Positions 8,443 through 40,068 are shown, numbered from the stretch's first letter. The stretch is 48,112 nt of DNA from Candidatus Woesearchaeota archaeon (GCA_018303105.1 JAGVYU010000012.1:1-48112); one strand, 5' to 3'. The notes: generated from the sequence alone by a model not told the origin. Program-made: numbers and translations.

Positions 8443-9676
8443 TATCCATTCCCAGCTTTTTGAGTTTTGCATCGAACATCATATAGCCCCTCTGGATATG
8501 CTCAATTCCTGATATCATTGTCGTATTCTCCGCAGCGCTCGCTGCCAGAACAAGCGCGGCTCCTGCGCGCAGGTCAGTTGCGGTTACGTTCGCTCCGGAG
8601 AGAGATGCCCCTCCAGGAATATGTGCTGCGTCTCCTTTGACCGTTATCCCGGCGCCTAAGCGGTTTAACTCATTGATATATGCAAAACGCTCCGAAAATA
8701 CAGTATCCTTAACAACGCTTTTTCCCGCTGCCCGGGCAAGCGCAGCCGCTACGATAGGCTGAAGATCCGTTGGAAATCCAGGATACGGCTTTGCCATGAT
8801 ATGCTGCCCTGTTAACGCTCTGTCGCGATACGCCCGCATGACATTTTGTTTTATCTCCGTTCGAATCCCCAGCGCATGCGCGATCTTGATCGGTGTTGCA
8901 AGATGCTCAGGATTCACATTCTGGATTCGAATGTCATTTCCTTGCAGCATTCCTGCGAGGAGAAGAAACGTTCCCGCTTCAATTCTGTCTGGAATGACAC
9001 GCATCCGGACTCCTGACAGCCTGGACACTCCGCTTATTTTCATAGTTCGGTTTTCTACTCCGATATCGACCCCAGCCGCCCTGAGGAAATCGACGAGCTG
9101 CATCGTTTCCGGTTCAATCGACGCGTTAGAAAGTATAGTAGTTCCCTCCGCACACGCAGCTGCGAGAAGGGCCTGCTGTGTCGCCCCTACACTTACGTGA
9201 GGGAAATCAATGCACGCCCCTTTAAGTTTTTTCGCGGTGAGTTCATACTGTCCATGCCTCACGCGTATGACTGCGCCCATTCTTCGGAATACGAGTTCAT
9301 GCAGGTCTGTTGGCCTGGGTCCTAAGATACATCCACCGGGAATGGCGATCGTCGCACGTCCCATCGTGCTGAGCAGCACGGATGCGAAGAGGATAGACGC
9401 GCGGAGCTTTCCCATATGTTCGTACGTTGCTGCAGCTGATGTGAGTTTATTCGCAAAGATTCGGATATGATCCTGTTGTGTTTTGATAGAGACTCCCAGC
9501 TCCTGAGCGATGGAAATCATATTGTCAATATCAGTTAGCGAAGGAATATCCTCAAGTACGCATGGTTTCCGTGTTAATACTGCCGCGGCAATGAGGGGAA
9601 GCGCAGCGTTTTTAGAGCCTGAGATACTCACTGATCCCTGTAATCGTTTTCCGCCTCTGATTACAAAGTTAGCCAT
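8417..9676 (-). CDS. murA: UDP-N-acetylglucosamine 1-carboxyvinyltransferase
   Basis: GSKNAALP, LRASI, PGGCILGPRPTDLH (active-site Cys loop), SVGAT, DRIEAGT, YPGFPTDLQP, DLRAGAAL, IQRGY; start at MANFVIRGG. Confidence 0.96.
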   Translation of the reverse strand: MANFVIRGGKRLQGSVSISGSKNAALPLIAAAVLTRKPCVLEDIPSLTDIDNMISIAQELGVSIKTQQDHIRIFANKLTSAAATYEHMGKLRASILFASVLLSTMGRATIAIPGGCILGPRPTDLHELVFRRMGAVIRVRHGQYELTAKKLKGACIDFPHVSVGATQQALLAAACAEGTTILSNASIEPETMQLVDFLRAAGVDIGVENRTMKISGVSRLSGVRMRVIPDRIEAGTFLLLAGMLQGNDIRIQNVNPEHLATPIKIAHALGIRTEIKQNVMRAYRDRALTGQHIMAKPYPGFPTDLQPIVAAALARAAGKSVVKDTVFSERFAYINELNRLGAGITVKGDAAHIPGGASLSGANVTATDLRAGAALVLAASAAENTTMISGIEHIQRGYMMFDAKLKKLGMDITCRSQSQ

Positions 9677-10538
9677 ATGGAATAATCTCCACTTCAGGCT
9701 GCAACAGCACACCTGATTTCTTTTTTACGGTTTTTTGAATGTGGCGGATAAGCCATACAATGTCACGCGACGTGGCATTTCCCGTATTCACTATCCAGTT
9801 TGCGTGATGCTCGGACACTTTAGCTCCTCCTTTTTGAAACCCCTTTAATCCTGCTGCTTCAATAAGCTGCCATGCTTTCCTGCTCTTTGGATTAATAAAG
9901 GTAGATCCAGCACTGGGCTCACTGAGGGGTTGTGTTTGAGTTCGATAGATTAGGGTTTGTTTTATCGTCGCTTGAATAAAGGTGTTTGGCTTGCTCACGA
10001 GTTTAAATGTTGCCTCAACGATAATATGACCCCGCATTCCTCTATGATACGCAAATGAGAGTTTTGATTTGGGCAGTATTTTTGTCCCTTGAGGTGTAAG
10101 CACCGTCACACTCTCTAAGACATCACTCGTCTGCACGCCATATGCTCCCACATTATTTGCGACTGCTCCCCCGACGCTTGCCGGGATTCCTATTAATTTC
10201 TCCAAACCCGAGAGATTATGGGCTGCGCATTTCAAGATAAGGCTTGATAAGGGCAATCCAGCTCCGACGCGTACGCGCTTGCCAGAGAACGTGAGGGCCA
10301 TGAGCTTTTTGAGCGAGATCACGCATCCCTTATACCCCTTGTCGGAGAAGATAAGATTTGAACCTCTCCCCAGGATAACATAGCGTATGTGCTCCTTGCG
10401 CAGCCGTGCAATAAGAGATTGAAGTTCTTGAACATTCTCAGGCGTAGCAAAGTATGATGCTGGTCCTCCCACCTTCATGGTTGTGTGGTGTGATAAGGGT
10501 TCTTTTTCCCGGACATTACGGCTTTTTAGTGCGTGCAT
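9669..10538 (-). CDS. murB: UDP-N-acetylmuramate dehydrogenase
   Basis: LSHHTTMKVGGPA, LGRGSNL, GIPASVGGAVANNVGAYG, QP...PSAGSTF.NP, HANWIVN, LQPEV. Confidence 0.95.
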   Translation of the reverse strand: MHALKSRNVREKEPLSHHTTMKVGGPASYFATPENVQELQSLIARLRKEHIRYVILGRGSNLIFSDKGYKGCVISLKKLMALTFSGKRVRVGAGLPLSSLILKCAAHNLSGLEKLIGIPASVGGAVANNVGAYGVQTSDVLESVTVLTPQGTKILPKSKLSFAYHRGMRGHIIVEATFKLVSKPNTFIQATIKQTLIYRTQTQPLSEPSAGSTFINPKSRKAWQLIEAAGLKGFQKGGAKVSEHHANWIVNTGNATSRDIVWLIRHIQKTVKKKSGVLLQPEVEIIPYG

Positions 10539-11571
10539 GATCGTTCAGTATTGTTTTAACAATGAGGGGCGTTGGGTTGCCGGGTAGGCATGCTGCGCAT
10601 GCGTTGGACATCGCTCGTAACCTCTTCTGCGTAAGCAAGCGCAAGGTGGGAAGTAGCTCCTTATGAAGCCGTTGCGACGGAATCATGATAGCGGTTCCTT
10701 TATGCGCGGCGTACAGCGCATTATACAACTGGTGGTTGTCCTTCACGTGCGGATGCGGAACGATGATTGCGGGTTTTCGCGCTGCCCATAATTCAACAAG
10801 GCTTGTCGCTCCTGCCCTGCATAGAACAACGTCTGCAGCTGCGTAATAAGCGCTGAGGTCTGCCAAAAAGTCCCGTACAATCATTTGTTTATATGTACTG
10901 TATTTCGGAAGCAGGGGATCATAATATTTTTTTCCCGTGACGTGAATAATGAAGATGTGTTTCTTCTTTAATCGAGGGAGAATGCTGCATACTGCCTCAT
11001 TAATGTCCTTCGCTCCATTCGTGCCTCCAAATGCGAGGAGGACAAACGTGTGTCTGGGGATGCGGAGTTTCTTACGTGATCGTGCTTGGGAAAGATGGAA
11101 GAGATGGGATGCCACGGGATTTCCGCAGAGCATTGTTTTCGATTTGAAATATCGCTCTGGTCCTGGCAGGAATGCAATGTTCAATTTGGAAAACCTGCTC
11201 AGGAGCCGGTTTGCTCGTCCCGGCAGCGCGTTTTGCTCGAAGAGGTATACGGGAATGCGAAGCGATCGCGCAGCGAGCACCGCCGGAATAGTAAAGTATC
11301 CCCCCATGCTGAGGACAATCCCGATTTTTTTTTGTTTTAGAATGGTTCTCGCGTCAAGATACGCTTTCGATAGCTGCATGAGAAACCGAGGAGTTTCAAT
11401 AAGCGTATGCTTCGCTTCAAGATCAAGCAGGAAAGGGGTTCCGGACACATAAGGCTTCATGGCACGGTCCGTGAGATAAAAGACATTATGGCGCTTTCGC
11501 AGCGTCTGTGCGAGCACATTCCCCGGCTTGACATGGCCCAATGTTCCCCCCGCCACGATTGCAATGCGCAT
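10516..11571 (-). CDS. murG: Lipid I GlcNAc transferase (GT28)
   Basis: GGTLGHV, MGGY, EQNALPGRANR, GNP, FGGTNGA, RAGATSLVE, HQLYNA; start at MRIAIVAGG. Confidence 0.94.
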   Translation of the reverse strand: MRIAIVAGGTLGHVKPGNVLAQTLRKRHNVFYLTDRAMKPYVSGTPFLLDLEAKHTLIETPRFLMQLSKAYLDARTILKQKKIGIVLSMGGYFTIPAVLAARSLRIPVYLFEQNALPGRANRLLSRFSKLNIAFLPGPERYFKSKTMLCGNPVASHLFHLSQARSRKKLRIPRHTFVLLAFGGTNGAKDINEAVCSILPRLKKKHIFIIHVTGKKYYDPLLPKYSTYKQMIVRDFLADLSAYYAAADVVLCRAGATSLVELWAARKPAIIVPHPHVKDNHQLYNALYAAHKGTAIMIPSQRLHKELLPTLRLLTQKRLRAMSNACAACLPGNPTPLIVKTILNDHARTKKP

Positions 11572-11590
11572 GATATGATGACAGATCGCT

Positions 11591-11604
11591 GATTTATAAA
11601 GATA
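11591..11604 (-). promoter_or_regulatory. Archaeal TATA box upstream of murG-murB-murA
   Basis: Minus-strand CTTTATAAAT about 20-30 nt upstream of the murG ATG (11571), the same geometry as housekeeping genes in the window. Confidence 0.55.
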
Positions 11605-11696
11605 GTGGACCATAGCGGATCGAGATTGCGTAAACACTGGGCTATTTAAGAATGCGGTAAACTTATAAAACCAAGCTGTGTTTCTAAGGGGGACGT

Positions 11697-12044
11697 ATGA
11701 AAAAAACAGGCCCTGTTTTAACGGGAATAGGTGCGAGCGCTGGCATCGCGGAAGGATTCGTTAAGATCGTGGAGGGAATACGAGACATATCAAAATTTAA
11801 CGAGGGGGATATTTTGGTGACGGAAATCACTGAACCTTCGATGGTGATAATGATGAATAAGGCTGCGGCCATTGTAACAAATCTGGGTGGGATAACCTCT
11901 CATCCGGCTATACTTGCCCGTGAGCTCGGGATCCCCTGTGTTGTTGCAACCAAAACGGCTACGACCATGCTGAAGGAAGGAATGAAAGTTAAAGTTGACG
12001 GGACCAAGGGTGAGGTCTACATCGCTGAAGATGATAAAGAATAA
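11697..12044 (+). CDS. Stand-alone PEP-utilising enzyme phosphohistidine (swivel) domain protein
   Basis: GIGASAG.AEG, GDILV...TEP, GGITSHPAILARELGIPCVV, VKVDG.KG. Confidence 0.88.
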   Translation: MKKTGPVLTGIGASAGIAEGFVKIVEGIRDISKFNEGDILVTEITEPSMVIMMNKAAAIVTNLGGITSHPAILARELGIPCVVATKTATTMLKEGMKVKVDGTKGEVYIAEDDKE

Positions 12045-13131
12045 CCAGCAGCAGTATCCTGAATGGATAGATGAGTTTGCTAGATCGTTTCATCATGCCT
12101 TTAAAAAAATGGTTCCTACAAGCTGGGGTCCTGTTGACGGGTGGGCGCTGCTCTCGCATCTGAATGGCTCTTTTATAAGGAAACTTCATCAGTCGGTTAA
12201 GAAGGTAAAAGAAAAAGAGACCTCTATAAAAGAAGTTGCTGAGAGTTTTTCTTGCCCTTCAACACTACGTCTTGCTTTATATTTTCTCGCCCTTGAATAT
12301 CAGTTCCAAAGCGACAAGGATAAAAAGCAATTCAAAGAGATAATAGAGTTTTTTATTGATGTTCTTAAAGAGATGATCAGAGAAGATATTTTTGCATATG
12401 ATAGAAACATCACACATACCTCCGAGGAAATAAAAAATATCGTAAACAGTACTCCATGGATAAAAGCAGACATTCCCATGGCAAAGGAGGTTGGAAAATT
12501 ATATAGTAGCTTAGCTTCTTTGGTGTATGCAGAGTATAGGGATTTTTTCCCCCAAGATGCACATGATATTTATGGACCCTATGATGTATCGAGCAAATTC
12601 GGGAACGAAGCAATCCTCCTTATAAAGCACTTCATAAAAATTCGCCCTAAGGAAATATGGCCAGATCTCAAATCTTCCTATGATGATGTAAAAATATTTC
12701 AGGTGCTGAAGCACGTTAAATTCAGTTGTGAAGTTATTGGTATGCATTCTCTTTATGAAGGAGATATTGTGAGGAATACCGTTGCACTAGCAGTAAGGAT
12801 TAACAACAAATTCGTTGATGATATACGTGAGGTCGGGCGTGCTCATGAAGAGATTGCCAGAATCGCCACCGACCATTCACGGGTATATGGGGACATGTCC
12901 GAGGCAGAAGTAAAACTTAAGTTTTTGGAATGGTTATGCTACCAGTTCTTTGGATTCTTCCGGATAGCGAATGTTGACTGGCGTCCTACTCAGGAAATGA
13001 TGAGGAGTGTTAAAGATAAGCAAATTCCGAATAGATGTGAAATTAAAGAATTTCCATCATGGGAAGAATACCGCTCAAGTAAGAACTTTGAAATCTTCTG
13101 GTTAAAAGATTTGTACCATAACAGTCATTGA
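12031..13131 (+). CDS. Hypothetical protein coupled to the PEP-swivel gene
   Basis: Long ORF, ATG at 12031 overlapping the upstream gene end, visibly AT-richer than the flanking mur genes; no motif recognised. Confidence 0.7.
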   Translation: MIKNNQQQYPEWIDEFARSFHHAFKKMVPTSWGPVDGWALLSHLNGSFIRKLHQSVKKVKEKETSIKEVAESFSCPSTLRLALYFLALEYQFQSDKDKKQFKEIIEFFIDVLKEMIREDIFAYDRNITHTSEEIKNIVNSTPWIKADIPMAKEVGKLYSSLASLVYAEYRDFFPQDAHDIYGPYDVSSKFGNEAILLIKHFIKIRPKEIWPDLKSSYDDVKIFQVLKHVKFSCEVIGMHSLYEGDIVRNTVALAVRINNKFVDDIREVGRAHEEIARIATDHSRVYGDMSEAEVKLKFLEWLCYQFFGFFRIANVDWRPTQEMMRSVKDKQIPNRCEIKEFPSWEEYRSSKNFEIFWLKDLYHNSH

Positions 13132-13158: not shown

Positions 13159-14049
13159 CTAGAGTGAAGCAACAACAAAAACAAGAGTTAAAGTGAGGGT
13201 GAATATCCAAGATGTGACTGCGATCGTCTGCTCCCCCCATCCAAGCCGGAGAAGCACATAGTGAAATGGCGCGATGGGGAAAAGAGTTCTCCCAAGAACC
13301 ATTCGGGAAAGGATTTGAACAATTGATGTTCCTCCTTCTATAACAATAAAAAGTCCAGCGATAAAAACGAAATATTTGAGCTTTGCGAAGATCGCAATCA
13401 TCGCGAGGAGTGATCCCAATAAGCTGGCCCCCGCGTCTCCCATGAACAATTTCGCGCGCGGAGCATTAAACACAAGAAAACCCGCGGTTGCTCCAATCAC
13501 TGCAAGGACAAATGGTACAAGAGCTGTTGACGCAATGGCCAGGAGTATGAAAAACAGGCCTGAGAGGATAATGATAAAGTTCCCCGCGGCCATGCCATCC
13601 AAACCGTCTGTAATGTTGAATGCGTTCACGAAAAATACGAGGAATAATCCGTTAAACAGGAGATATGGGATGCTTCTTGACGTGGTATAATAAAAAACGA
13701 TGCAGAACGCGACTGCGAGAATGAATTGAAGGATGAGTCGAGTTCTCCAGCGCAATCCCGTCGCGCTTCTCCGCGTGATCTTCAGGGCATCATCGGTTAC
13801 GCCTATCGCAAAAAAGAGTGTGGCAAAAACGAGGATGATAAAATAGTCTGACGTATAGAGGAAAGGTAGAGAGGCAACAAGCGCAAGCAATATGATGATG
13901 CCACCCATCGTCGGCGTTCCTTGTTTCTTCTTGAATGACTGTAAGAGCACGAATTCTTTAATTCCAATCTTGCGTGCAAGAGGAATATAGAAGAGTCCAA
14001 ACAGTACACAGAGGATTAGAGGTACAAAAAAGCTAAGCGCCATACTCAT
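13159..14049 (-). CDS. mraY: Phospho-N-acetylmuramoyl-pentapeptide transferase
   Basis: KKQGTPTMGG, G..DD, NAFNITDGLDG, FNAP.AKLFMGDAG, IEGGTSIVQ, FPIAPFHY; multi-TM. Confidence 0.9.
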   Translation of the reverse strand: MSMALSFFVPLILCVLFGLFYIPLARKIGIKEFVLLQSFKKKQGTPTMGGIIILLALVASLPFLYTSDYFIILVFATLFFAIGVTDDALKITRRSATGLRWRTRLILQFILAVAFCIVFYYTTSRSIPYLLFNGLFLVFFVNAFNITDGLDGMAAGNFIIILSGLFFILLAIASTALVPFVLAVIGATAGFLVFNAPRAKLFMGDAGASLLGSLLAMIAIFAKLKYFVFIAGLFIVIEGGTSIVQILSRMVLGRTLFPIAPFHYVLLRLGWGEQTIAVTSWIFTLTLTLVFVVASL

Positions 14050-14070: not shown

Positions 14071-14080
14071 ATTTATAAGG
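14071..14080 (-). promoter_or_regulatory. TATA box upstream of mraY
   Basis: Minus-strand CCTTATAAAT about 22-31 nt upstream of the ATG at 14049. Confidence 0.45.
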
Positions 14081-15815
14081 TTTTGGGCACTTTCAGGAAG
14101 GGCGTGGGATCCACGGGGATTTTGTTCTTTCGTACCTCAAAATGGAGATGTGTGTAATCATAAACGGTTCCATCTGAGGGTACATTTCCTGTTCTTCCCA
14201 CATATCCAATGCACTCACCGACTCGCACAGTTCTTGGATGACCCTCGAAACTGTCCAAATGTGCGTACCAAAACTCAAAATGTCCGCGCGCGACAATAAC
14301 CGTGTTCCCATAAAGATCCGATATCTCGTGGCGCATACGTCCACGTGCCACGGAGTATACCGGGTCTTTCGCATCCGCAGGCAAATCAATCCCTGTATGA
14401 TAATCGCCGCCTCGTGCCGCCATATAGTATCCAATCGGACGTGGCACCACATGTGCAGCAAGTGGATATGCTTTCGTGTTTGAGTTGTGTTTAATTTGGC
14501 TTGCGAATGTGTCAAGCCCAACCATGCGCGACCCTTTGAGGAGGATAGCATCTCCTGGTTTTGTGTAGGAGAACAGCGCTTTGGTAAGGAGTTCTTTAGT
14601 TGCGCAGAGAGTATATTGGAGATTGCTCTTCCTGAGTACCTTGGCGGTAGTGCGAACATGTTCACCTAACAGAAAAATATGGTCGAATGGAGCTCTAGCA
14701 ATGATGCCTGCTGCTTCTTCATGTTTTTTCGCAGTCCATTTTCCAAGCTCGGCCATATCCCCAAATACAATTAACTTTCTTCTTTTTCTTGTGATCGCAA
14801 CAAACGCCCCTACCGCATTTGCGAGGGATGCGAGATTCGCGTTGTATGAGTCGTTGTAGATGAGCACGTCATTAACAAAGAAGACCTGAGACCTGCCCTG
14901 AAGAGGGAGATAATTGAGCATTGCGTTCTGGATATCCCGTGAGGAAATGGAAAACTGCGATGCAACTGCGATCGCTGCGAGTGTATTGAGCACGTTATGC
15001 GTTCCAGGCACGGGAATCCGCAGCGTAAAAGATTCTCCTGGAGTGTTCACGCGACCGTTCGTAGCTCCGTCTGGAAGTATCCGAATCGAATGAGCTCGAA
15101 TGTGTGCATCAGGGTGTATTCCAAACGTGACAACTTTTGTTTTTGCAAGCGCGTGCATGGCGTCATAATATGGAGAATCCCTATTGAGCACAATGATCGA
15201 ATGCTTGACTGTGTTCAAGTAGCGTATAAGCTCTGTTTTGGCTTCGAAAATCGCCTTCTGAGATCCAAAAGCGCCAATGTGCGCATCATGAATGTTTGTA
15301 ATAATCCCAATAGACGGTTTAGACATCCTGCACCGATGCATGATCTCTCCCTTCTTGGATACGCCTGCCTCCAGAACGGCGATATCATGGTGTGAGGTTA
15401 AGCGGCTCAATGTCAGGGGAAATCCCTGCTCACTATTGAAGTTTCCGGCGGTTTTCAGCACAGAATATTGTGTGCTGAGCATGAGCGCGAGCATTTCCTT
15501 CGTCGTTGTTTTCCCATTGCTGCCGGTTATAAACACAAGCGGTATGCGAGTACGGGCTCTTCGGAACGCTGCAACATCATCAATGGCTTCTTGAACACTG
15601 GCCACACGAATAATTCGCTTGTCCTTCGGAGCTTGTTTTTTGTTTGTAAAGATATATGCTGCTCCCCTCGTGAGCGCATCTTCAACATAGTCGTTTCCAT
15701 CAACATATCTCCCTTTAAACGCGCAAAAAATGTCTCCTTTTTTGATTAGTCTTGAATCTATCTGTAAACGTGCATGAAGGGCTGCAGTTTTTGAGAGACG
15801 GCTAAGCACGCTCAT
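14073..15815 (-). CDS. murF: MurF (D-Ala-D-Ala adding ligase) fused to a C-terminal M23 metallopeptidase
   Basis: IDSR, GRYVDG, ITGSNGKTTTKE, GNFNSEQGFP, EAG, NI..AHI, HN..N, NDSYNAN, GDMAELG, LLKGSR; then HTGIDL, YGN.V, YAHL, IGYVG.TGN, HLHFEV. Confidence 0.92.
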   Translation of the reverse strand: MSVLSRLSKTAALHARLQIDSRLIKKGDIFCAFKGRYVDGNDYVEDALTRGAAYIFTNKKQAPKDKRIIRVASVQEAIDDVAAFRRARTRIPLVFITGSNGKTTTKEMLALMLSTQYSVLKTAGNFNSEQGFPLTLSRLTSHHDIAVLEAGVSKKGEIMHRCRMSKPSIGIITNIHDAHIGAFGSQKAIFEAKTELIRYLNTVKHSIIVLNRDSPYYDAMHALAKTKVVTFGIHPDAHIRAHSIRILPDGATNGRVNTPGESFTLRIPVPGTHNVLNTLAAIAVASQFSISSRDIQNAMLNYLPLQGRSQVFFVNDVLIYNDSYNANLASLANAVGAFVAITRKRRKLIVFGDMAELGKWTAKKHEEAAGIIARAPFDHIFLLGEHVRTTAKVLRKSNLQYTLCATKELLTKALFSYTKPGDAILLKGSRMVGLDTFASQIKHNSNTKAYPLAAHVVPRPIGYYMAARGGDYHTGIDLPADAKDPVYSVARGRMRHEISDLYGNTVIVARGHFEFWYAHLDSFEGHPRTVRVGECIGYVGRTGNVPSDGTVYDYTHLHFEVRKNKIPVDPTPFLKVPKTL

Positions 15816-16803
15816 ATATGTACCGGGCGAGTTTCCTCACTTCTGGATTAAAGCTCAGCTTGAATTTTCCGTACCCTTGAATATTTGGTTTATGACCTAT
15901 GAGGGAGATAGGAAATAATCCCCACAGATTATACTCGGTATGCCCTAAAGTCTTGTAGTGTTGGATAATTCGCCATTGGAGCAGGTTATTTGCCGCAGTT
16001 TTGAACGCAACATCGTTGGAAGCGCCGTATACCCAGTTGATTTTTCGCTTGAATTTCCATATCCATGCTGCTGCGATAATCTCGGAATTGCGCCTCGCGA
16101 TCCACATATCTGCACCATCGTGCTCACGATACTTTAAAAATTTGTGCCTAAGAGCCTTGAAGGGTAAAACCTGTGCTCCCTTCGCATGCATACGTTTCTC
16201 ATAGAGAGCGTAGAAAGATATGAATGCATTATCGCTGTTATCAATGGCGATCGCCAGCGACTGTTTCTCCGCATAGCGTATAGCCGTTCTGCATTTTTTA
16301 TTAAAGGACATGAACAGAGAATCGAGTGGTTGCTGAAGATCTATGAGCGTTGTGATATCCTGTTGGTCTGTACATTGCCTCTTTCCACTGACAAGCGAAA
16401 TGGCATTGTCAGCATAGAGAATAATTTTCAGCGCTCGAGTTACGCGCGGCAACTTCATGATTTCCGTAAACATCATACGGCAAAGCGTTTTTCGGTGCCT
16501 TACTGAGTCAATAATCACAGGAGCATTTCCTGAACGCGTGCCAAACTCAATACCTGTGCTTAACCAGGGCACGCGAAACTTAAGGAGGCTTTTCAAAGGG
16601 TGCCCACGCTCGGCATAAACCTCGCCCACAAGGACGGCAATCGGCTGTCCATGCTCATACGCGCAGAGATACACACAAGGATGTCCAATGTCTTGCTGAG
16701 TCATGTAGTAGAGCGGCGTATGGAAAAAATTCGCGTCCTTGGAATGCGCAAGAACATATTCCCAATCCTCAATATTAACGTCTGTTCTGAACGTGGTGCT
16801 CAT
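15802..16803 (-). CDS. FemABX-like GNAT peptidyltransferase
   Basis: W...L......NFFHT, IDL...L..L...F.KK.R..IR.A.K, F..FY.LY, YGAS, ANNLLQW.II, YNLWG, FK.SF; start at MSTTF. Confidence 0.78.
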   Translation of the reverse strand: MSTTFRTDVNIEDWEYVLAHSKDANFFHTPLYYMTQQDIGHPCVYLCAYEHGQPIAVLVGEVYAERGHPLKSLLKFRVPWLSTGIEFGTRSGNAPVIIDSVRHRKTLCRMMFTEIMKLPRVTRALKIILYADNAISLVSGKRQCTDQQDITTLIDLQQPLDSLFMSFNKKCRTAIRYAEKQSLAIAIDNSDNAFISFYALYEKRMHAKGAQVLPFKALRHKFLKYREHDGADMWIARRNSEIIAAAWIWKFKRKINWVYGASNDVAFKTAANNLLQWRIIQHYKTLGHTEYNLWGLFPISLIGHKPNIQGYGKFKLSFNPEVRKLARYIYERA

Positions 16804-18196
16804 GCGGCAGCTGCTCCGTATATTTCTGTAATGCTCCTTCAAAATTGCTTGAGGACATGAAGAGGACAGCAGTTGGGATTGAACCGTGGCGTTTGAGATA
16901 TGTCACAACGACTTCAGCGGTCTCAATACACTGAACATGAGGATGTTTGAGAATCCGCGCATAGTCTTGAGGTGTTGCAAGCTGTTCTTTCGTGAGAAGC
17001 CGTGATGGCTGCACCCGGTAAATAATCACTTCATCAGCGTCGTTGAATGAATCCATGTAGCGTGCAACATAGCGTTTATTCCTGCTGCTTCCCGTATACG
17101 GTTCAAAGAGCGCTATGAGGTGATGGTGGGGAAACTTCTGCTTCACTGCTCGCACGGTCTCACGCACTTTGCTCGGCTGATGCGCGAGGTCATCAATGAC
17201 GATGAGTGTAGGGCTTTTATACACGATCTCCTGCCTGCGCTGTGTTCCTCTAAATGTCCGAAGCGCTTTTTCAATTGCGGAGTCTGGTATTCCAAGCGTT
17301 TTCGCAACAAGGATCCCGGCGAGCATGTTTTCGACATTGTGCTCTCCATAGAGAAATGCAGCATAGTGATTTGATTTTCCTTCGTAGAGAACATCAAATG
17401 TTGTAAGCGGATTATAGATGATGTGGCGCGCAGAAATGGCTGATGAGGGCTGTAGTCCGTATGTTAATCCGGTTTTTTCGGCATGGGTAAGCACAACAGA
17501 AAGTTCTTTGTTGTGGTCAGATACTATGACGTGGGCATCGGATTTAAGACTTTGGAATAAGTGAACATATGCTTCCTGATATTCCTTATCCGTCGGATAC
17601 ACATTAATGTGATCAAGTTCAGCGCTTGTGAGTACAACGATATCAGGATGGTAATACATGAATTTCGGCTTTTGATCCGCATCTGAGCATGGATATTCGT
17701 CGCCTTCAATAACAAAATACTTTGATTTAGTGATGCGGAAGCTTTTGTCAAGGTTTTTTGGGATGCCGCCAATCAAATAGCTGGGTTGCTCTCCCGCGGT
17801 TTCGAGAATCCACGTTATGATCGCCGTTATCGTTGTCTTTGCGTATGTGCCCACAACGCATATGACCGTGTAGTCTTTGAGGATATCCTCAAGAAGCTCT
17901 GGGAAGGACACAATTTTGATATTTTTCTTCTTCGCTTCTACATATTCTGGATTGTCCAGGAAGGCATGCCTTCCCAAAACGACAAGATCTATATCATCCG
18001 TAATGAATGTAGCATCATACCCGGATTTTTTGAGGATTCCCCGCTTCTCAACAATCGTTTTAACGGGATCGTACGCCTCGTCATCCGAGCCTGTCACTAT
18101 GAATCCCTGGTCCTTGAGCTCAATCGCAATTGCGCTCATAGCAACACCCGCAACTCCAATGAAATGGATTTTTTTAATGCCTTCGAGCATATGCAT
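16775..18196 (-). CDS. mpl: Mur ligase of the MurC/Mpl family, most similar to murein peptide ligase Mpl
   Basis: IHFIGVAGVAMS, TGSD, GTYAKTT, PSYLIGGIPKN, FVIEGDEY....D.KPKF..YHP, ELDH, RRQE, DDLAHQP, FEP; the EGDEY..DxxxKF insert and FEP are Mpl-like. Confidence 0.72.
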   Translation of the reverse strand: MHMLEGIKKIHFIGVAGVAMSAIAIELKDQGFIVTGSDDEAYDPVKTIVEKRGILKKSGYDATFITDDIDLVVLGRHAFLDNPEYVEAKKKNIKIVSFPELLEDILKDYTVICVVGTYAKTTITAIITWILETAGEQPSYLIGGIPKNLDKSFRITKSKYFVIEGDEYPCSDADQKPKFMYYHPDIVVLTSAELDHINVYPTDKEYQEAYVHLFQSLKSDAHVIVSDHNKELSVVLTHAEKTGLTYGLQPSSAISARHIIYNPLTTFDVLYEGKSNHYAAFLYGEHNVENMLAGILVAKTLGIPDSAIEKALRTFRGTQRRQEIVYKSPTLIVIDDLAHQPSKVRETVRAVKQKFPHHHLIALFEPYTGSSRNKRYVARYMDSFNDADEVIIYRVQPSRLLTKEQLATPQDYARILKHPHVQCIETAEVVVTYLKRHGSIPTAVLFMSSSNFEGALQKYTEQLPHEHHVQNRR

Positions 18197-18235: not shown

Positions 18236-19267
18236 ATGGAGATGAAGCTTATTCCGATCATTGCAGCGACATTCTTACTCGTGGGTTGCTCTGGCATCTC
18301 CGACAAACCCGATGCATCGCGCGGCATCTACCTCAACGCGTGGCTTGCGGGAAATGAAATCCGGCTAAACGAGTATGTTGTACGTATGCGCAACACGGGA
18401 ATAAATACTGTAATTATTCACATGCAGGACACGGACGGCATTTTACCGTATGATTCAAAGATTCCTTACGCAATTGAGATTAACGCGACAGAAATACGCA
18501 TCAAGAACGTCTCTGCGTTAGTTGATCGGCTCCATGCTGATGGATTCTATGTTATTGCTAAAGTGGATACGTTTAAGGATAGAAAATTAGCATATGCGCA
18601 TCCAGAGTACGCATTTTCGTATAAGAATGGCTCTCTCTTCGAAGACCGGTTTGGAGTGCACATTGACCCGAATAATCCGGTTGTGTGGGAGTATAAAAAA
18701 GCAATCTACGAAGAGATGTTTGATTTTGGATTTGATGAAGTAATGATTGATTATATTCGGTATCCAGAGCGGGCATACTATGGTGCTCTTAATTCCCCTT
18801 TCACGAAGGGTGATACAAGTATGGAAACTATAGAAGGATTTATGCAATATATACGGGCTAGTCTTCCGTATCAGACTTTTTCTGTGGCGATTTTCTCTAA
18901 TGTATGTCTTGGTGAAGACCATGCGATTGGCCAAAGTGTGGATATCTTTGCACCGTACGTTCAATATATATCCCCCATGCTCTATGTTAGCTTAGATCCA
19001 TATGAGCCCTGGCAGGATGCACGTGGATTTATCGCCAAAAGGACAGAGGCATGCCTCATCAGGATTCAAGGCTCCAATGCCAAACTCCGTCCTTGGCTCC
19101 AGGGATACTCGGACAGATACCAGACTATGAATGCTTCTGCAATACAGCAACAAATAAAAACAGTTGAGCGTTTCCCTGGCGTCGCAGGATGGCAAATATG
19201 GAATTCGGCTGGAAACTATAATGCAACGTTCAAAGCGCTTGAGGAGAATAAGAGTAACCGCGGCTAG
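18236..19267 (+). CDS. Putative glycoside hydrolase lipoprotein (DUF4015-like TIM barrel)
   Basis: Lipobox LLVGC; RGIYL, YVIAK...FKD, IDP....VWEY, GFDEV..DYIRYP, IGQ, YISPMLY, LRPWLQ, WN. Confidence 0.8.
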   Translation: MEMKLIPIIAATFLLVGCSGISDKPDASRGIYLNAWLAGNEIRLNEYVVRMRNTGINTVIIHMQDTDGILPYDSKIPYAIEINATEIRIKNVSALVDRLHADGFYVIAKVDTFKDRKLAYAHPEYAFSYKNGSLFEDRFGVHIDPNNPVVWEYKKAIYEEMFDFGFDEVMIDYIRYPERAYYGALNSPFTKGDTSMETIEGFMQYIRASLPYQTFSVAIFSNVCLGEDHAIGQSVDIFAPYVQYISPMLYVSLDPYEPWQDARGFIAKRTEACLIRIQGSNAKLRPWLQGYSDRYQTMNASAIQQQIKTVERFPGVAGWQIWNSAGNYNATFKALEENKSNRG

Positions 19268-20012
19268 CGTTCTCATCCTGATCATCTGTATCAGTGTATT
19301 GCTCTTCATCCTCACACCTTCAGTAGATAATGTTGAGGGATATCGCCCTAAGGCAGAGTTTGTGTACAATTCCCCTCTTGGTTCAGACGTCACTTTAAAT
19401 GCAACAAACAGCTCATACATCCCATTGAATGACCTTCCTGATTTTTTAGTGAAAGGTATTGTGGCAGTTGAGGATCGCAGATTCTATTATCACCCCGGCA
19501 TTGATCCTATCGCGATCGCGCGTGCGGGAGTCCAAGCTGTCCGGAATCCAGAGAGAATTCAAGGTGCAAGCACAATCACGCAGCAGCTCGCACGCTCGGC
19601 ATATCTAAGTCAGGAAAGAACACTCTCCCGCAAGATGGAGGAGATGATTCTTGCTTTAAAGATCGAATATGCATACCCAAAAGAGAAAATCCTTGAATTT
19701 TACTTCAATGACGTATTCTTTGGGGATCAGATATATATGGATGTATCATATGACCTTACAGTGTACGGTGTTCAGGATGCATCACGATTTTTCTTCGGGA
19801 AAAACGCTTCTAACCTGAGCATATCAGAGGCAGCTTTTCTTACTGCTATACTCAAAGGTCCAAATTATTATCTGACAAGACCTGAAGAGCTTGAAAAACG
19901 TAGACAAGTAGTGCTTGAGATTTGGAGTAGGGAGCATATTATTTCTGAAGAAGAGTATTTAATAGCTCTCCGAGAGCCTACGCAGATAGTACAATCCAAA
20001 GCCGCATCGTAA
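19221..20012 (+). CDS. Monofunctional peptidoglycan transglycosylase (GT51), no transpeptidase domain
   Basis: N-terminal TM; GT51 motifs EDRRFYYHPGID, GASTITQQLAR, RKMEE, KEKILEFYFN, YGV..AS..FFGK, EAAFL; ORF ends after the GT domain. Confidence 0.92.
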   Translation: MQRSKRLRRIRVTAASVLILIICISVLLFILTPSVDNVEGYRPKAEFVYNSPLGSDVTLNATNSSYIPLNDLPDFLVKGIVAVEDRRFYYHPGIDPIAIARAGVQAVRNPERIQGASTITQQLARSAYLSQERTLSRKMEEMILALKIEYAYPKEKILEFYFNDVFFGDQIYMDVSYDLTVYGVQDASRFFFGKNASNLSISEAAFLTAILKGPNYYLTRPEELEKRRQVVLEIWSREHIISEEEYLIALREPTQIVQSKAAS

Positions 20013-21206
20013 TACGGCCATGATGAGCAGCGCAGATGTTGTTGCAATAGCCCCTCCGATCATGCCATAACCGGGGATTAAAAGCGCGTTGAGGATAATA
20101 TTTGCAACAGCCGCCACAGCCGCGATTGCAAGGATAAGCGGTGTTTTCTTCATGGACGCCAATGTTGAGTTAAAGACGCTGAATGGTAAGGATACAAAGT
20201 ATCCCCATGCAAGGATAACTAGGGGTATAACCCCGAGGATATATGCCTCTCCAAAAAAAGTCTGCAGGAGAATCCTTGGGAAGAAAATAAAAAGCAAAAA
20301 CAAAGGCGCGCTGAGGATGAGAATTGTGAAAAATGATCGTATTACCAGTGATTTCGCTTCCTGTGTTTTTTCCGCCATAATGTGGGTTGTCATTGTGGGA
20401 ACAAAGAGGTATAATACCGCTTCCTGAACAACGAGAAGGAGCGCCGCTGTTGGAAGCGCAACGCTGTATATCCCTGCCTCTGAGCTTCCCCTGATGTATC
20501 CAATCATTAAGACATCTGTCCATCGGATGATTAAGTAAAAGAAGCCTGAGAAAAGGAGAGGTAATGAGTAGAGCAGGGGTGTTCTAAAGTCGTATGATGA
20601 CTGTGAAAAGGAGGGCCAAACAAGAAAGAATGCGATTACGCATGTAATGATGAGGGTAAGCGCATGCGCCCATGCTGCCATGGACACCGAGAGAACGAAT
20701 GAGAACAAGAAGAGTGTGAGCACGACTTTAAGGACGCTGTCTCCAAGGTAGCGTAATGAGACATTCGCAAAGATTCGCTTCTCCGCCTGCAGGACAGAAA
20801 ACAGAAGCCATCCGATTGACGCAAAGGGTATGCTTATGGAAAGGATTCTCAGAACTGTTGCAAGCTCCTGAATCTTAAATCGCTCTGCAAGCATTGGCGC
20901 GAAAAACCAAAGCAGTACTGCCAGGAAGATGGAGGCAATACATGCAAGGACAAGCGACGACACGAGATACTGGTGTTGTTTGCGCGGCGCTCCTTTGTAA
21001 TAGGGAAGATGGCGCAAAATACCCTGATCCAGACCAAGAACGCTGATCGTGAACACGATGCCAAAGATAGCCAGGGCGATGCTGAAGACTCCATATTGCT
21101 CTGGCCCGAGCTTAGAGAGGACAATTCGATAGACATAGCCGAGGAGTTTAGCGAGGGATATAGCAATGAGAACAATCCCTGTTGCTGATGTGATTATCTT
21201 GCGCAT
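19959..21206 (-). CDS. MOP-superfamily flippase (Wzx/MurJ-related)
   Basis: About 12 TM; LGPEQYG, LGL..G, D.LMIG....S.EAGIY..A, LN.LLIP.YG..GGAIAT. Confidence 0.85.
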   Translation of the reverse strand: MRKIITSATGIVLIAISLAKLLGYVYRIVLSKLGPEQYGVFSIALAIFGIVFTISVLGLDQGILRHLPYYKGAPRKQHQYLVSSLVLACIASIFLAVLLWFFAPMLAERFKIQELATVLRILSISIPFASIGWLLFSVLQAEKRIFANVSLRYLGDSVLKVVLTLFLFSFVLSVSMAAWAHALTLIITCVIAFFLVWPSFSQSSYDFRTPLLYSLPLLFSGFFYLIIRWTDVLMIGYIRGSSEAGIYSVALPTAALLLVVQEAVLYLFVPTMTTHIMAEKTQEAKSLVIRSFFTILILSAPLFLLFIFFPRILLQTFFGEAYILGVIPLVILAWGYFVSLPFSVFNSTLASMKKTPLILAIAAVAAVANIILNALLIPGYGMIGGAIATTSALLIMAVLRCGFGLYYLRRLSESY

Positions 21207-21250
21207 TAAGTTGATTTATGATTTATGCATAAAAAGGTTTGGTAAGCACA

Positions 21251-21373
21251 GGCTTCGGTGAAAGTCTCTTCTGGCCTAGCGACGCGAAAGTTCATTTTTC
21301 GTCCTCCAACCAGCTTTCTGATGGTAGCTCCTCGCTAAACCGTCAGGATGGGCCGGACATTTTCACCAAAGCC
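21251..21373. mobile_element. 123-bp MITE with IS903-like (IS5 family) ends and a 9-bp target site duplication
   Basis: Terminal inverted repeats GGCTTCGGTGAAA / TTTCACCAAAGCC (12 of 13 match); flanking direct repeat GTAAGCACA at 21242-21250 and 21374-21382; no coding capacity. Confidence 0.82.
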
Positions 21374-21418
21374 GTAAGCACAGGAATATTTATAATAGGA
21401 AAGTCATGTGATCACGGT

Positions 21419-22648
21419 ATGCTGCGAAGGAAGAGCAAATTAGAAAATCGGGATTTGGTAATACTTGGCTTTTTACTTTTGGCCTTGTACTCCGCTGCAG
21501 TCTTCTATATCAATAAGCTCCCATTAATGGGCGATGAGAGCATTCATTATTTCCAAATAAGACAATTCATGGTCGGTAACTATGAACTGCATCATGCCTT
21601 AACGACCATCCCCGGATATAATCTTATTTTGGCCGGCATGGGGGGGATATGTAATGTATTCTCCGTTTTTGGCATGCGATTATTCTCATCTCTTTTTGGG
21701 TTGGCAGCGATTGGAGTTTTCTTATTGATATTAAAAGGGATGAGACAAGAAAGTGGAGATAAAATGATTTTGCGGACATTGCAACTCATGTTTCTTCCAT
21801 TAATCGGACCATTTTTCTTTTTGTTATACACGGATGTTCTTTCTCTGCTTTTCATTCTGCTTACGGCGTTTTTCATAATCAAAAAGCAGCATACATTTGC
21901 AGGCCTTATGGCAATCCTTGCTGTATTGATAAGGCAAAATAACATTGTGTGGTTAATATTCTTCCTGGCGTTAGCGTATGAGGCTCGGTTCAAGTGGAAA
22001 ATAAACCGTTCAAACATAATAAAGGGTGTAGGGGAATTCTGGGTATTTCTTCTCGGCATAATCGGTTTTTTCTTCTTTATTATTCTGAACCAGGGTTTTG
22101 CTGTGGGAGATAAGTCGGCTCACCCCCCATTTAGCTTTCATACAGAGAATCTTTTTTTTGCATTGTTTGTCTATTTCTGGGTTTTTCTGCCTCTTGTTTA
22201 TTGCAGAAGACATAAGATTATTCAATTGTTCCATGATTGGAAAACGGTCTCCATAATCACTATTGCGGCAGCAGCCTATTTTTTATTGTTTCATGTTACA
22301 CATCCATACAATGTGTTTCTCACCGAGGATTATATGAGAAACCGCATACTCGCCTTATTTGGTATAAATCTCTGGATCAAGGGTCTGCTTTTTATTCCTA
22401 TTGGTCTTGGTCTTCTCACACTCATGTCTCAAAAAATAAAAAATCAAGTGCCATTTTATATTTTCAGCGCGTTGTTTCTTCTCCCCTCGTGGCTTATTGA
22501 GCAGAGGTATTATATCATTCCGTTCGTCCTCTTTTTGACGTACCGCGCTATGGAAAAAGAATCATATGAACAGACACTCGTTATTTGGTTTATGATGTTG
22601 GTGGCAATAATATTTTGGATCGTTGGAGGATTGGGCATATTCCTATGA
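21419..22648 (+). CDS. ALG10/DIE2-like GT-C alpha-1,2-glucosyltransferase homologue
   Basis: DESIHYFQ, LTTIPG, LLYTDVLS, RQNNIVW, VGDKSAH, HPY, EQRYYIIP match ALG10-family motifs; TATA at about 21389-21396 supports the start at 21419. Confidence 0.75.
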   Translation: MLRRKSKLENRDLVILGFLLLALYSAAVFYINKLPLMGDESIHYFQIRQFMVGNYELHHALTTIPGYNLILAGMGGICNVFSVFGMRLFSSLFGLAAIGVFLLILKGMRQESGDKMILRTLQLMFLPLIGPFFFLLYTDVLSLLFILLTAFFIIKKQHTFAGLMAILAVLIRQNNIVWLIFFLALAYEARFKWKINRSNIIKGVGEFWVFLLGIIGFFFFIILNQGFAVGDKSAHPPFSFHTENLFFALFVYFWVFLPLVYCRRHKIIQLFHDWKTVSIITIAAAAYFLLFHVTHPYNVFLTEDYMRNRILALFGINLWIKGLLFIPIGLGLLTLMSQKIKNQVPFYIFSALFLLPSWLIEQRYYIIPFVLFLTYRAMEKESYEQTLVIWFMMLVAIIFWIVGGLGIFL

Positions 22649-24021
22649 GGTGGTCAGATTGGATTTTCGGAGCGGTTTTTGTATACTGTAGCGCAAGTGT
22701 GATATCCTATTTGCTCAACGAACACTACATTGTCATCCTTTTGGGGTTAATGTTTCTAATTTTGGCCTGGTTTTTTTATGATAAAGCGGTGTACTTTTTT
22801 CTGCTGACAGCGCCTTTCATGCCACTCTATGCGCCAGGACACATGACGGATGCACTGCCCGGAGCATCACTGATGATTTTGCTGCTGTTGTCGGTATGGT
22901 CGTATCGTAAAGTGGTGGATCAAAAGTCCATGAGAATTATAACCCTCGACAAGGCTGTGATAGTATTTGGCGGGTGGTTATTGGTGACATATGTCGTGCA
23001 TGCTTCCAATCCATTGGACAGTTTCAGGATGCTCATAAATTTCATTTCAAATTATGGCCACTTGCCTGTAATTTCTCTAATGTACGTGGTCCAAGGGATC
23101 GCTGTGTACTTTCTCGTGACGGACGGTTTACAAAACAAGATACTGGATAAAAAATTAATAGTATCAACACTGGTTGTGTGTCTGATCCTTATTGCAGGAT
23201 ACGGGATCCTTGATTCAATGTTAATTGACAAAAGTGAATTTTATCATGGAAAGAATAGGGCAACTTCTTTGTTCTTTGATCCGAATTCTTATGGAACATT
23301 TTTGATATTGCTCTTGCCTCTGGCTTTTGCTTTGTATAAAGAGGACTCGTGGATATCTAAGCTTGCGATCATTCTTGGTGTGATTGGGCTCACCACGACC
23401 TTTTCGAGGGGTGCGTGGATTGGCGTAATTTTTGGAGGAGTGTATGGTGGCACCTTGTGGCTTAATCATAGATTGAAACTCGTAAAATCAGCAAGGACAT
23501 ATTCATTAGTCCTTATGATAATACCTTTGCTGCTCATTATTGGTTTTTTGGTTACAGCTGCTATTGGAGATCCTCTTACCGTACAGAGGAAGTTGCAGGG
23601 GAGATGGTATCTTTGGAATGCGGGAATAAACATGGCAGAGAGGACTCCCCTAGTTGGTGTTGGCATCGGAAGATATAATGAGAACTTAAAAAACTATTAT
23701 GATGAAGGTATTGAACCGTGGACCACATATGAGCATGCACACAACTGGTATATACAGATAGGTTCGGAAGCAGGAGTCATTGGGTTATCCCTCCTTTTTC
23801 TTATTTTAAGTTTAATCCTGATCACAGGATTCATAAAGATTCGAAAAAAAGGCAATAGTCTTGATTACATGTTGTTGATTGGAATAGTCGCTGTGCTTAT
23901 ACATTCATTGCTTGATTATACCGTCCGACAACTTTTTATTATTATTCCGTTTTGGACGCTTATTGCTCTTTTGAACAGTCCACGACAAAACAAGAAAAAG
24001 GCAAAAAAGAGAAAGAAGTAG
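22645..24021 (+). CDS. O-antigen ligase (WaaL/Wzy_C) family membrane protein
   Basis: RATSLFFDPNSYG, TFSRGAWIG, R..LW..G..M....P..GVG.G, HAHN.Y.Q...E.G..GL; ATGA overlap with the previous gene. Confidence 0.85.
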   Translation: MRWSDWIFGAVFVYCSASVISYLLNEHYIVILLGLMFLILAWFFYDKAVYFFLLTAPFMPLYAPGHMTDALPGASLMILLLLSVWSYRKVVDQKSMRIITLDKAVIVFGGWLLVTYVVHASNPLDSFRMLINFISNYGHLPVISLMYVVQGIAVYFLVTDGLQNKILDKKLIVSTLVVCLILIAGYGILDSMLIDKSEFYHGKNRATSLFFDPNSYGTFLILLLPLAFALYKEDSWISKLAIILGVIGLTTTFSRGAWIGVIFGGVYGGTLWLNHRLKLVKSARTYSLVLMIIPLLLIIGFLVTAAIGDPLTVQRKLQGRWYLWNAGINMAERTPLVGVGIGRYNENLKNYYDEGIEPWTTYEHAHNWYIQIGSEAGVIGLSLLFLILSLILITGFIKIRKKGNSLDYMLLIGIVAVLIHSLLDYTVRQLFIIIPFWTLIALLNSPRQNKKKAKKRKK

Positions 24022-35982: not shown

Positions 35983-35983
35983 G

Positions 35984-36862: not shown

Positions 36863-36864
36863 GG

Positions 36865-39263: not shown

Positions 39264-39321
39264 AGCGCATTGCAGGGCGACGTGGTTTTTAAACTTGTGT
39301 CGTAATCCTGAAATAGTGAAG

Positions 39322-40068
39322 TCAGCGGCGATATTTGAACACGAGGTATACCGCAACCCCGACAAAAAGGAGGACAAATGTGATGATGGCTACCGTTTGC
39401 TGGTCAACTTCAATGTCCCGTCGCATTTCTGGCGTTCGTCCTGCTAATACTTCTCCGGTATCAGCGTCTACATATGAATGCGCGCCGTCCTTATGGGTAA
39501 CGTCATAGATGAGGCGATATCCGTCATCTATGGGAAGGATCGCGAGTTCGCTGTCTGGAATTTGTTCAGGGGGTATATCGGGAGTGATGTCTTCTAAGAC
39601 AACGGGGGCATACCATCTCGAGACAATAGCGTAAATCTCACTGTCCGTGAATTCAAGTGCCCCCTGAAATGTGCCAATGATCGGGATGTTGTAGCAGTAC
39701 TGGCTTTCTCCGAGAAAAGACACGGTTTTAGGGATATCGACTGTCGTCACCATAGCTAATGCATCGTACTGCTCGATGCGCAGGTCCTCTTCATTGCGCT
39801 CGAGAAAGTCATTTGCCCGCGCAACGTAGTTTGCTGGAGTGAGCGTGGGGTCCACCAATGGCTGTATTCCCTCATATCCTTCTTTGACAATGCGGCGGAC
39901 GTATGCATCTCCTTGATTCGTGTCCGTTGCTTTCCACACGTCCCCATCGAGAAGAATCGTATTATCAGGCCCAACTTCAGGAATATCCCAGCCGCTGAAT
40001 TCACATGTGATTGCTGAGCTTACTGGCGTAATCAGGATCATCATCGTAAAAAGGAGTGCATACTTCAT
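39322..40068 (-). CDS. Secreted, membrane-anchored hypothetical protein (PepSY-like tail)
   Basis: Signal peptide, acidic domain, YVDADTGEVL, C-terminal TM followed by YRR. Confidence 0.6.
   Translation of the reverse strand: MKYALLFTMMILITPVSSAITCEFSGWDIPEVGPDNTILLDGDVWKATDTNQGDAYVRRIVKEGYEGIQPLVDPTLTPANYVARANDFLERNEEDLRIEQYDALAMVTTVDIPKTVSFLGESQYCYNIPIIGTFQGALEFTDSEIYAIVSRWYAPVVLEDITPDIPPEQIPDSELAILPIDDGYRLIYDVTHKDGAHSYVDADTGEVLAGRTPEMRRDIEVDQQTVAIITFVLLFVGVAVYLVFKYRR

Follow-up and report, generated by a model that had tools for sequence, protein, structure and literature searches.

Can an archaeon assemble a bacterial murein peptide when the enzymes that would supply its D-amino acids are not recognisable in its genome? 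To our knowledge murein is, by the textbook, exclusive to Bacteria, and the only archaeal counterpart known, pseudomurein, is the product of enzymes distantly related to the Mur proteins. The question is raised by a 48,112-nt contig of a Candidatus Woesearchaeota archaeon (GCA_018303105.1, JAGVYU010000012.1:1-48112), analysed as a whole and hereafter called the window. Open reading frame (ORF) calling places three overlapping minus-strand ORFs, all in one direction, within positions 14073-18196. These encode an Mpl-like UDP-MurNAc peptide ligase (MurNAc, N-acetylmuramic acid) of 473 aa (16775..18196; assigned from its Mur-ligase domains, tree position and motifs), a FemAB/GNAT-like transferase and a 580-aa MurF with a C-terminal M23 metallopeptidase domain (14073..15815), followed in the same direction by MraY. 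A first-pass annotation had seen in this interval an Mpl-like ligase plus MurF, without MurD or MurE, that would scavenge bacterial murein peptides; it named the two ligases correctly, and left the FemAB-like ORF and the M23 domain on MurF unmentioned. The reading favoured here, at a probability of roughly 0.5, is that the archaeon has acquired a lipid II-type pathway for which it makes its own UDP-MurNAc and takes the D-Glu, D-Ala and diaminopimelate (DAP) parts from outside.

The First Ligase and the Mpl Family

The first ligase is the only gene of MurC/Mpl type found in its own genome (G000; 1.30 Mb in 72 contigs, 92.1% complete, 1.59% estimated contamination), which was read alongside that of a congener (G001, 95% complete); both are drafts. 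All three Mur-ligase domains are present, each above its cut-off (PF01225, PF08245 and PF02875 at 49, 65.2 and 41.8 bits). In BLASTP the protein matches E. coli Mpl over its full length at 213 bits and 30% identity, and E. coli MurC at 124 bits. Among the 120 homologues listed, 26 carry names from their sources, 25 of them Mpl; MurC is not among these names. Beyond the genus, the next identities in this set are 47% and then at most 37%. Its neighbours in the Atlas are all bacterial and bear mixed automatic names, both Mpl and MurC. Scores against PDB sequences were discarded as a discriminator, as a MurC reached 161.5 bits and Psychrobacter Mpl 154.3 bits, the latter split by insertions, and the two were not separated.

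A tree was built with IQ-TREE from 63 rows and 478 columns, the references being MurC from nine bacterial genomes (over cut-off in 9 of 9), E. coli MurC, Mpl and MurD, one verified Mpl and one Mpl near the cut-off; support is given as ultrafast bootstrap (UFBoot)/SH-aLRT. The query falls in a clade of 52 rows from which the 10 MurC references are all absent (94/99), and within it joins E. coli Mpl in a clade of 51 rows (98/94). Constraining the query to group with MurC, together with its congener and the 47% relative, lowers the log-likelihood by 54.8 units, and the approximately unbiased (AU) test rejects this grouping (p 0.005). The earlier view of this protein as Mpl-like and not MurC is therefore upheld, the tree giving a placement on the Mpl side and the comparison with profile hidden Markov models (HMMs) being ambiguous. 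Gene context of a bacterial paralogue from the ligase's own subclade (in genome G065) consists entirely of transposases and was set aside as uninformative.

The motifs agree with this placement. PSYLIGGIPKN, EGDEYPCSDADQKPKFMYYHP and FEP, on which the first-pass annotation had relied, are all found in the protein. The Mpl-type insert is no coincidental likeness: with its Tyr, Asp, Lys and Phe it occurs in 52 of 52 Mpl-side rows, and an insert at this site in one of the 10 MurC references; the Glu that begins the "EP" loop is found in 50 of the 52, where nine of the 10 MurC references have Gln. Judged from the sequence, "Mpl-like" is thus a correct statement of ancestry. The available sections of PMC3060825 describe an Mpl-only motif, (S/T)AFFDKRSK, and Tyr182 (PaMpl numbering), and propose RR, FAHH, EPRSNT and SNG in the C-terminal domain as tripeptide-binding residues. 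In the archaeal ligase the first site reads CSDADQKPK followed by F, equal in length and with Tyr, Asp, Lys and Phe retained and FF, R and S replaced; RR is also retained, and the remaining sites read LAHQ, EPYTGS and SSS. The P-loop, GTYAKTT (17840-17860, residues 116-122), has Ala where 60 of 62 aligned MurC/Mpl rows have Gly, a substitution restricted to the query and its congener. This change of Gly to Ala before the Lys coexists with a nonsynonymous to synonymous rate ratio (dN/dS) of 0.10 for the gene.

Steps Present and Missing

If the first ligase begins the stem peptide, which enzymes could complete it? A whole-genome HMM search finds on this contig only the two Mur ligases already named in the first-pass annotation, and the sole MurE of the genome sits elsewhere, so the window does lack murE, as had been stated. 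The wider claim of a pathway "without MurE" fails. On contig C7 lies an intact MurE of the meso-DAP (mDAP) type (NF001126, 595.7 bits against a cut-off of 373), 34% identical to the E. coli enzyme, with its DNPR aligned to the E. coli DNPR and a dN/dS of 0.31. Its neighbours are archaeal (a RIO1 kinase, a KRR1-type KH protein, and topoisomerase VI A and B), and their order is identical in the congener. An IS200/IS605-type transposase (L001 2778-3251, G000:C7) directly adjoins MurE; the congener has none at this place, its gap there being about 215 bases. Exactly three Mur-ligase genes are found in the genome, and the same three in G001. MurD, MurE and Ddl elsewhere in the genome had been named beforehand as findings that would refute the scavenging scheme; murE is present, and murD and ddl were not found.

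The remaining genes were not recognised elsewhere in the draft genome either. Within the 48 kb, no murD, ddl, alr or murI was detected, either by HMM match on the contig or in Pfam scans of the scanned window ORFs of at least 150 aa, in agreement with the first-pass annotation. MurC over cut-off is likewise lacking in the whole genome, although all nine bacterial genomes checked have one. MurD has no HMM match over cut-off in G000 and none in G001, and E. coli MurD gives no tblastn match in G000. Ddl is found in neither genome, nor do E. coli DdlB and a Ddl-like protein of another genome of the same order (G358) yield a tblastn match in G000. Alr over cut-off is absent from both genomes, a weak match in G000 (14.8 bits) being a LysA-type decarboxylase. 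No MurI was found in G000. A 2227-base contig of the congener (G001:C165, L087) carries an ORF resembling alanyl-tRNA synthetase and an Asp/Glu-racemase-like N-terminus of GGMGP type, broken off at the contig end; nothing in G000 matches it at the nucleotide level, and the synthetase-like ORF shares only 40-54% identity with its G000 counterpart over tblastx segments. This short contig is probably mis-binned, and the fragment was rejected as a MurI. Class IV or D-amino-acid aminotransferases (Dat) are found in neither genome, and the sole MR_MLE match, a candidate L-Ala-D/L-Glu epimerase and hence a source of D-Glu, is enolase. Save for the racemase-like fragment, then, murC, murD, ddl, alr and murI are not recognisable in two congeneric genomes, as the first-pass annotation had noted of murD, ddl, alr and murI for the window.

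The supply of DAP shows a similar gap. DapF is missing from both genomes and DapA from all three searched, while a LysA equivalog is present (contig C22, L007 1087-2517; 309.2 bits, cut-off 297.9). LysA without DapA and DapF suggests that DAP is taken up and not made, and the pairing of an orphan LysA with an mDAP-type MurE therefore points to imported DAP as a cellular metabolite. Since MurC, MurD, Ddl, Alr, MurI, Dat, DapA and DapF are missing from two congeneric genomes, it seems that the stem peptide cannot be made de novo, and the simplest reading is that preformed parts are imported.

The sugar and lipid-linked steps, in contrast to the peptide, are well represented around the ligase run. 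A murA-murB-murG run on the minus strand begins with a MurA-like enolpyruvyl transferase (8417..9712; Pfam EPSP_synthase, 264.6 bits) and continues with MurB, the UDP-N-acetylmuramate dehydrogenase (9669..10538; NCBIfam NF010480, 314 bits against a cut-off of 259, with Pfam MurB_C and FAD_binding_4), and a MurG-like glycosyltransferase (10516..11637; NCBIfam murG, 225.5 bits, under the cut-off of 250.25) that is the single tblastn match of E. coli MurG. The MraY-like phospho-MurNAc-pentapeptide transferase (13159..14049, minus strand) is recognised by Pfam Glycos_transf_4 (92.3 bits) and MraY_sig1, its NCBIfam mraY score of 147.1 bits being under the cut-off of 192.05. On the other side of the ligases lie a monofunctional GT51 peptidoglycan glycosyltransferase (19164..20012, plus strand; Pfam Transgly, 187.7 bits), in which a hydrophobic N-terminal stretch forms a membrane anchor and no transpeptidase domain is present, and a candidate flippase of the MOP superfamily (19959..21206, minus strand; Pfam Polysacc_synt 86.6 bits, MatE 59 bits).

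The MurF Fusion, Its Partner and Their Archaeal Setting

The MurF part of the fusion protein scores 368.8 bits with NCBIfam murF (TIGR01143, cut-off 288.6) over residues 19-438 of 580, and the M23 domain occupies residues 472-570 (14106..14402, minus strand; Pfam Peptidase_M23, 61.3 bits). H473, D477, H556 and H558 are invariant in all four aligned fusion proteins, and presumably represent the HxxxD and HxH metal motifs of M23. The protein has no signal peptide, and inspection of the linker by eye revealed no transmembrane segment. Such fusions are rare. A word-based search with the C-terminal region returned four fused clusters, and an exhaustive HMMER search with the M23 part, run over 1.84 billion representatives, found 103 proteins at E <=1e-10, a Mur-ligase part being present in only four of the best 150. 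MurF::M23 is a new architecture beyond the catalogued Mur chimeras; in the main text of that catalogue, neither M23 nor a peptidase appears (PMC10214165).

The FemAB-like gene between the two ligases (15802..16803, minus strand) overlaps both neighbours. Its likely ATG start is at 16803, the listed ORF running from a TTG at 16842, and its cluster representative in the congener is 333 aa. The protein matches Pfam Acetyltransf_6 (45.2 bits, cut-off 22) and FemAB (36.7 bits, cut-off 24), and no relative in the PDB reaches E 0.01. The pairing recurs in G358, which belongs to another family of the same order: there a FemAB-like protein (29% identity), a Ddl-like ATP-grasp protein and a MurF-like::M23 protein (33% identity) lie together (G358:C32, L082 2212-5851) within a GT4/GT2/Wzm-Wzt polysaccharide cluster. 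This MurF-like protein is without the N-terminal UDP-binding domain that the window's MurF retains, and neither an Mpl-like ligase nor MurE was found in G358. A FemAB-family transferase beside an M23 peptidase also recalls staphylococci, where lysostaphin (M23) is reportedly encoded next to the FemAB-like immunity factor Lif/Epr. Unlike lysostaphin, the window's M23 domain forms part of a cytoplasmic MurF fusion that lacks a signal peptide, and there is no sign of a bacteriocin role.

The cluster sits in a genome that is archaeal by its gene content and, to judge by its size, DPANN-like, and that occurs in groundwater samples. Its flanks are of archaeal type (TruD, a YGR210-type GTPase and a KaiC-like ATPase), and its guanine-cytosine (GC) content is not distinct from the remainder of the window. 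Among 60 relatives of the same order the ligase is found in one, the congener, at 90% identity, and a murF match is found in three of 401 genomes of the phylum (G000, G001 and G358); the cluster is therefore a lineage-restricted acquisition. Between G000 and G001, dN/dS is 0.10 for the Mpl-like ligase, 0.14 for the FemAB-like protein, 0.21 for MurF::M23, 0.31 for MurE, 0.29 for GT51 and 0.17 for the flippase, values that indicate conservation under purifying selection within the genus. A scan of metagenomes for distant copies of the cluster gave 58 loci, one a 99% fragment, one a 2-kb contig at 41% identity and the remainder at 23-36%, and so added no new context. The sister genus (G002:C16, L014; G003:C77, L013) has only a two-domain, 387-aa Mur-ligase-like protein beside serine hydroxymethyltransferase, which is probably a folylpolyglutamate synthase and not a member of a wall pathway.

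Several further genes adjoin or interrupt the cluster. A 378-aa soluble ORF on the opposite strand (11995..13131, plus) interrupts the mur genes; it has no Pfam or NCBIfam family match and no relative in the Atlas, and lies in a stretch of lower GC content (0.417). Upstream of the first ligase is a putative glycosyl hydrolase of the DUF4015 family (18236..19267, plus strand; 199.9 bits) with a lipoprotein-type signal peptide at its N-terminus. That peptide ends in LLVGC, a bacterial-style lipoprotein signal in an archaeal genome, and the protein, at 78% identity to the congener, has diverged faster than its neighbours. Beyond the flippase gene lie an ALG10/DIE2-like membrane glycosyltransferase (21239..22648, plus strand; Pfam DIE2_ALG10, 119.8 bits), a Wzy_C membrane protein resembling O-antigen ligases and polymerases (22585..24021, plus strand; 75.8 bits), and a further GT-C-like membrane protein also adjoins the cluster. 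At 35011-46339 are found a type IV pilus/archaellum-like ATPase, two T2SSF membrane proteins and an adjoining protein of 1633 aa that carries two VWA domains; together they may form an apparatus for adhesion or contact.

A Proposed Pathway, Its Rivals and Known Systems

What could these enzymes make? Gene content, family placement, conservation and the absences are read directly from the genomes; from them we infer the substrates, the salvage and the nature of the product. With MurA and MurB both present, UDP-MurNAc would be self-made by these two enzymes. The first peptide ligation would then fall to the Mpl-family ligase instead of MurC, as the sole enzyme able to start the peptide. D-Glu, D-Ala and DAP would come from outside, because the genome is without MurC, MurD, Ddl, a racemase, a D-amino-acid aminotransferase and DAP synthesis, and would be imported preformed, bacterial murein fragments being the most plausible source; from this we infer a host or prey among bacteria. 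The Mpl-like enzyme may join preformed peptides containing L-Ala-gamma-D-Glu, of several lengths, to UDP-MurNAc. Psychrobacter Mpl accepts L-Ala-D-Glu and L-Ala, weakly, according to the available sections of PMC3060825. UDP-MurNAc-L-Ala-D-Glu, the substrate of MurE, would most simply arise from a preformed dipeptide ligated by the Mpl-like enzyme, and MurE would then supply such dipeptide adducts with imported DAP. Tripeptide adducts would be finished by MurF, and longer murein peptides could pass straight to MurF or MraY.

The FemAB-like enzyme may load a free amino group with a tRNA-activated residue, more likely as a branch on the amino group of DAP; since enzymes of the FemAB family acylate amines, it cannot replace MurD. 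The fused M23 domain may trim or otherwise process peptides in the cytoplasm. MraY and MurG would assemble a lipid-linked disaccharide-peptide, the MOP flippase would export it and the membrane-anchored GT51 enzyme would polymerise it. With GT51 and no transpeptidase, the product would consist of glycan strands that are uncross-linked or linked in an unconventional way.

A number of observations weigh against this reading. At the level of the first ligase, NCBIfam scores are below both cut-offs, with murC at 274.4 bits (TIGR01082, cut-off 335.1) and mpl at 247.2 bits (TIGR01081, cut-off 388.7). Other members of its clade are likewise under the mpl cut-off (183.6 to 257.8 bits). The query belongs to an 18-row sister clade (100/98), outside the 33-row clade of canonical Mpl (100/99). 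The FF of the Mpl motif is lost, the peptide-binding loop EPYTGSS is nearer to that of MurC (QPH.YS-RT) than to EPRSNT of Mpl, and the P-loop Ala could alter the use of ATP. We know of no assayed member of the sister clade. Tripeptide ligation, which the first-pass annotation had taken over from characterised Mpl, cannot simply be carried across: from the sister-clade position and the missing (S/T)AFFDKRSK and EPRSNT signatures, tripeptide specificity cannot be assumed.

At the level of the pathway, there is no strict MurC/D/E bypass, because MurE is retained. No D-Ala-D-Ala source for MurF is evident. Transpeptidases of the penicillin-binding protein (PBP) and YkuD types are found in neither genome, and FtsW and FtsI gave no tblastn match in G000 (E. 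coli FtsW as query); a cross-linked sacculus is therefore not predicted. The search for amidases and Opp transporters suggested in the first-pass annotation revealed no genes for uptake or harvesting: SBP_bac_5, Amidase_2, Amidase_3 and SLT were each found in neither genome (AmpG and LdcA were not searched). The drafts being 92.1% and 95% complete, absence is moreover not proven.

Incompleteness also leaves room for de novo synthesis with hidden parts, which is judged unlikely. Here the Mpl-like enzyme would act as a MurC and add one amino acid, and unrecognised analogues, moonlighting enzymes or missing genes would supply D-Glu addition, D-Ala-D-Ala and racemisation. Its murC score does exceed its mpl score, the peptide loop of its clade (H/Y-T-x-S) is more like that of MurC than that of Mpl, the retained MurE would require a MurD-type product, and the 378-aa ORF without family lies inside the cluster. 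Overexpressed E. coli Mpl is, moreover, able to replace MurC, as stated in the available sections of PMC3060825. Against these points, the tree and the AU test set the ligase apart from MurC, of which every bacterial genome checked has a copy over cut-off and this genome none. MurD, Ddl, Alr, Dat, DapA and DapF would have to be hidden in two genomes alike, and the sole racemase-like fragment is the one on the probably mis-binned 2.2-kb contig of G001. In bacteria, murD and ddl are usually in the same cluster as the other genes of the pathway, and neither is found in this one.

Is the product a murein at all? The genes could instead serve another MurNAc-based or glycopeptide surface polymer, with ligases whose specificity has changed, as in pseudomurein, and a peptide for which D-amino acids are not required, the FemAB-like protein and MurF::M23 forming a general module for decorating glycans with peptides. 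The recurrence in G358 supports a role of this kind for part of the system, the pair there lying in a polysaccharide cluster of a genome without an Mpl-like ligase or MurE. The lack of a transpeptidase, the ALG10-like, Wzy_C and GT-C-like membrane proteins next to the cluster, and MraY and MurG scores under the NCBIfam cut-offs fit it as well. It is nevertheless improbable, as MurB, MurE and MurF exceed curated equivalog or subfamily cut-offs, MurE retains its DNPR mDAP motif, the GT51 domain reaches its 187.7 bits, and MurA together with MurB imply UDP-MurNAc; the G358 ligase, for its part, lacks the UDP-binding domain kept in the window's MurF. That the cluster or MurE is bin contamination from bacteria, or a functionless and decaying transferred island, is very improbable despite a draft of 72 contigs with 1.59% estimated contamination and the transposase adjoining MurE, given that both loci are flanked by archaeal genes on their own contigs and syntenic in the second genome, with every frame intact, dN/dS of 0.10-0.31 and a GC content like that of the rest of the window.

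The acquired lipid II-type pathway proposed here resembles several known systems in part. With characterised Mpl, as in E. coli recycling, the first ligase shares the three Mur-ligase domains, the insert after EGDEY, the EP loop start, an MS...F.G motif at the C-terminus and the larger clade. It differs in being the only first-step ligase and not an accessory to MurC, besides its sister-clade position, EPYTGSS loop, P-loop Ala and score below the mpl cut-off. Unlike E. coli, the archaeon has no match to an AmpD-type amidase, an Opp/Mpp-type binding protein or a lytic transglycosylase within the search described above. The canonical de novo pathway of bacteria shares MurA, MurB, MurE, MurF, MraY, MurG, a flippase candidate and GT51, but its MurC, MurD, Ddl, Alr, MurI, PBP transpeptidases and YkuD were detected in neither genome by family search, and the host here is an archaeon. 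Wall-component auxotrophs are closer in principle: Tannerella forsythia is said to scavenge MurNAc, and obligate intracellular bacteria reportedly have reduced peptidoglycan pathways, so that in both a murein pathway relies on parts that are imported or derived from moonlighting enzymes. The organism of the window, in contrast, is an archaeon that would make the sugar part and lack the peptide part.

Pseudomurein offers the archaeal comparison. MurA, MurB and GT51 are not known to be part of pseudomurein synthesis, whereas the window has all three, the first two for MurNAc synthesis. Its proteins also score far better on bacterial models than on those of pseudomurein (pMurC 83 bits, cut-off 560; archaeal MraY 86 bits, cut-off 450). 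What the systems have in common is an archaeon whose Mur-family ligases and MraY-type transferase come from bacterial ancestors, as described for Methanobacteriales and Methanopyrales in the available sections of PMC11915815 and PMC10117817; these pseudomurein studies, to the same extent, describe no cluster such as this. For small-genome archaea, the available sections of PMC8204110 and PMC9723730 report murein-degrading enzymes and speculate on bacterial hosts, and do not report murein synthesis. Searches of the openly readable full-text literature, which excludes subscription journals and supplementary tables, turned up no description of such an archaeal cluster; supplementary tables may list such families.

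The window thus holds a bacterial-type gene set for UDP-MurNAc and lipid II that is conserved under selection in an archaeal genus and rare in its phylum. A more far-reaching picture is put forward tentatively, as possible though on balance doubtful: an archaeon that makes a bacterial-type MurNAc-peptide glycan with no D-amino acids or DAP of its own, draws the peptide from bacterial walls through an Mpl-family ligase as the sole entry, and so has an envelope obligately tied to bacterial hosts or prey, with MurF::M23 and the FemAB-like protein as a new module for editing peptides that other surface-glycan clusters in this archaeal order have as well. The cluster raises the questions of whether an archaeon can make a murein-like polymer, and whether enzymes of the Mpl family can act as primary and not recycling ligases. 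It also asks whether salvage of wall peptides may bind small-genome archaea to bacteria, as is speculated for such lineages in the available sections of PMC8204110.

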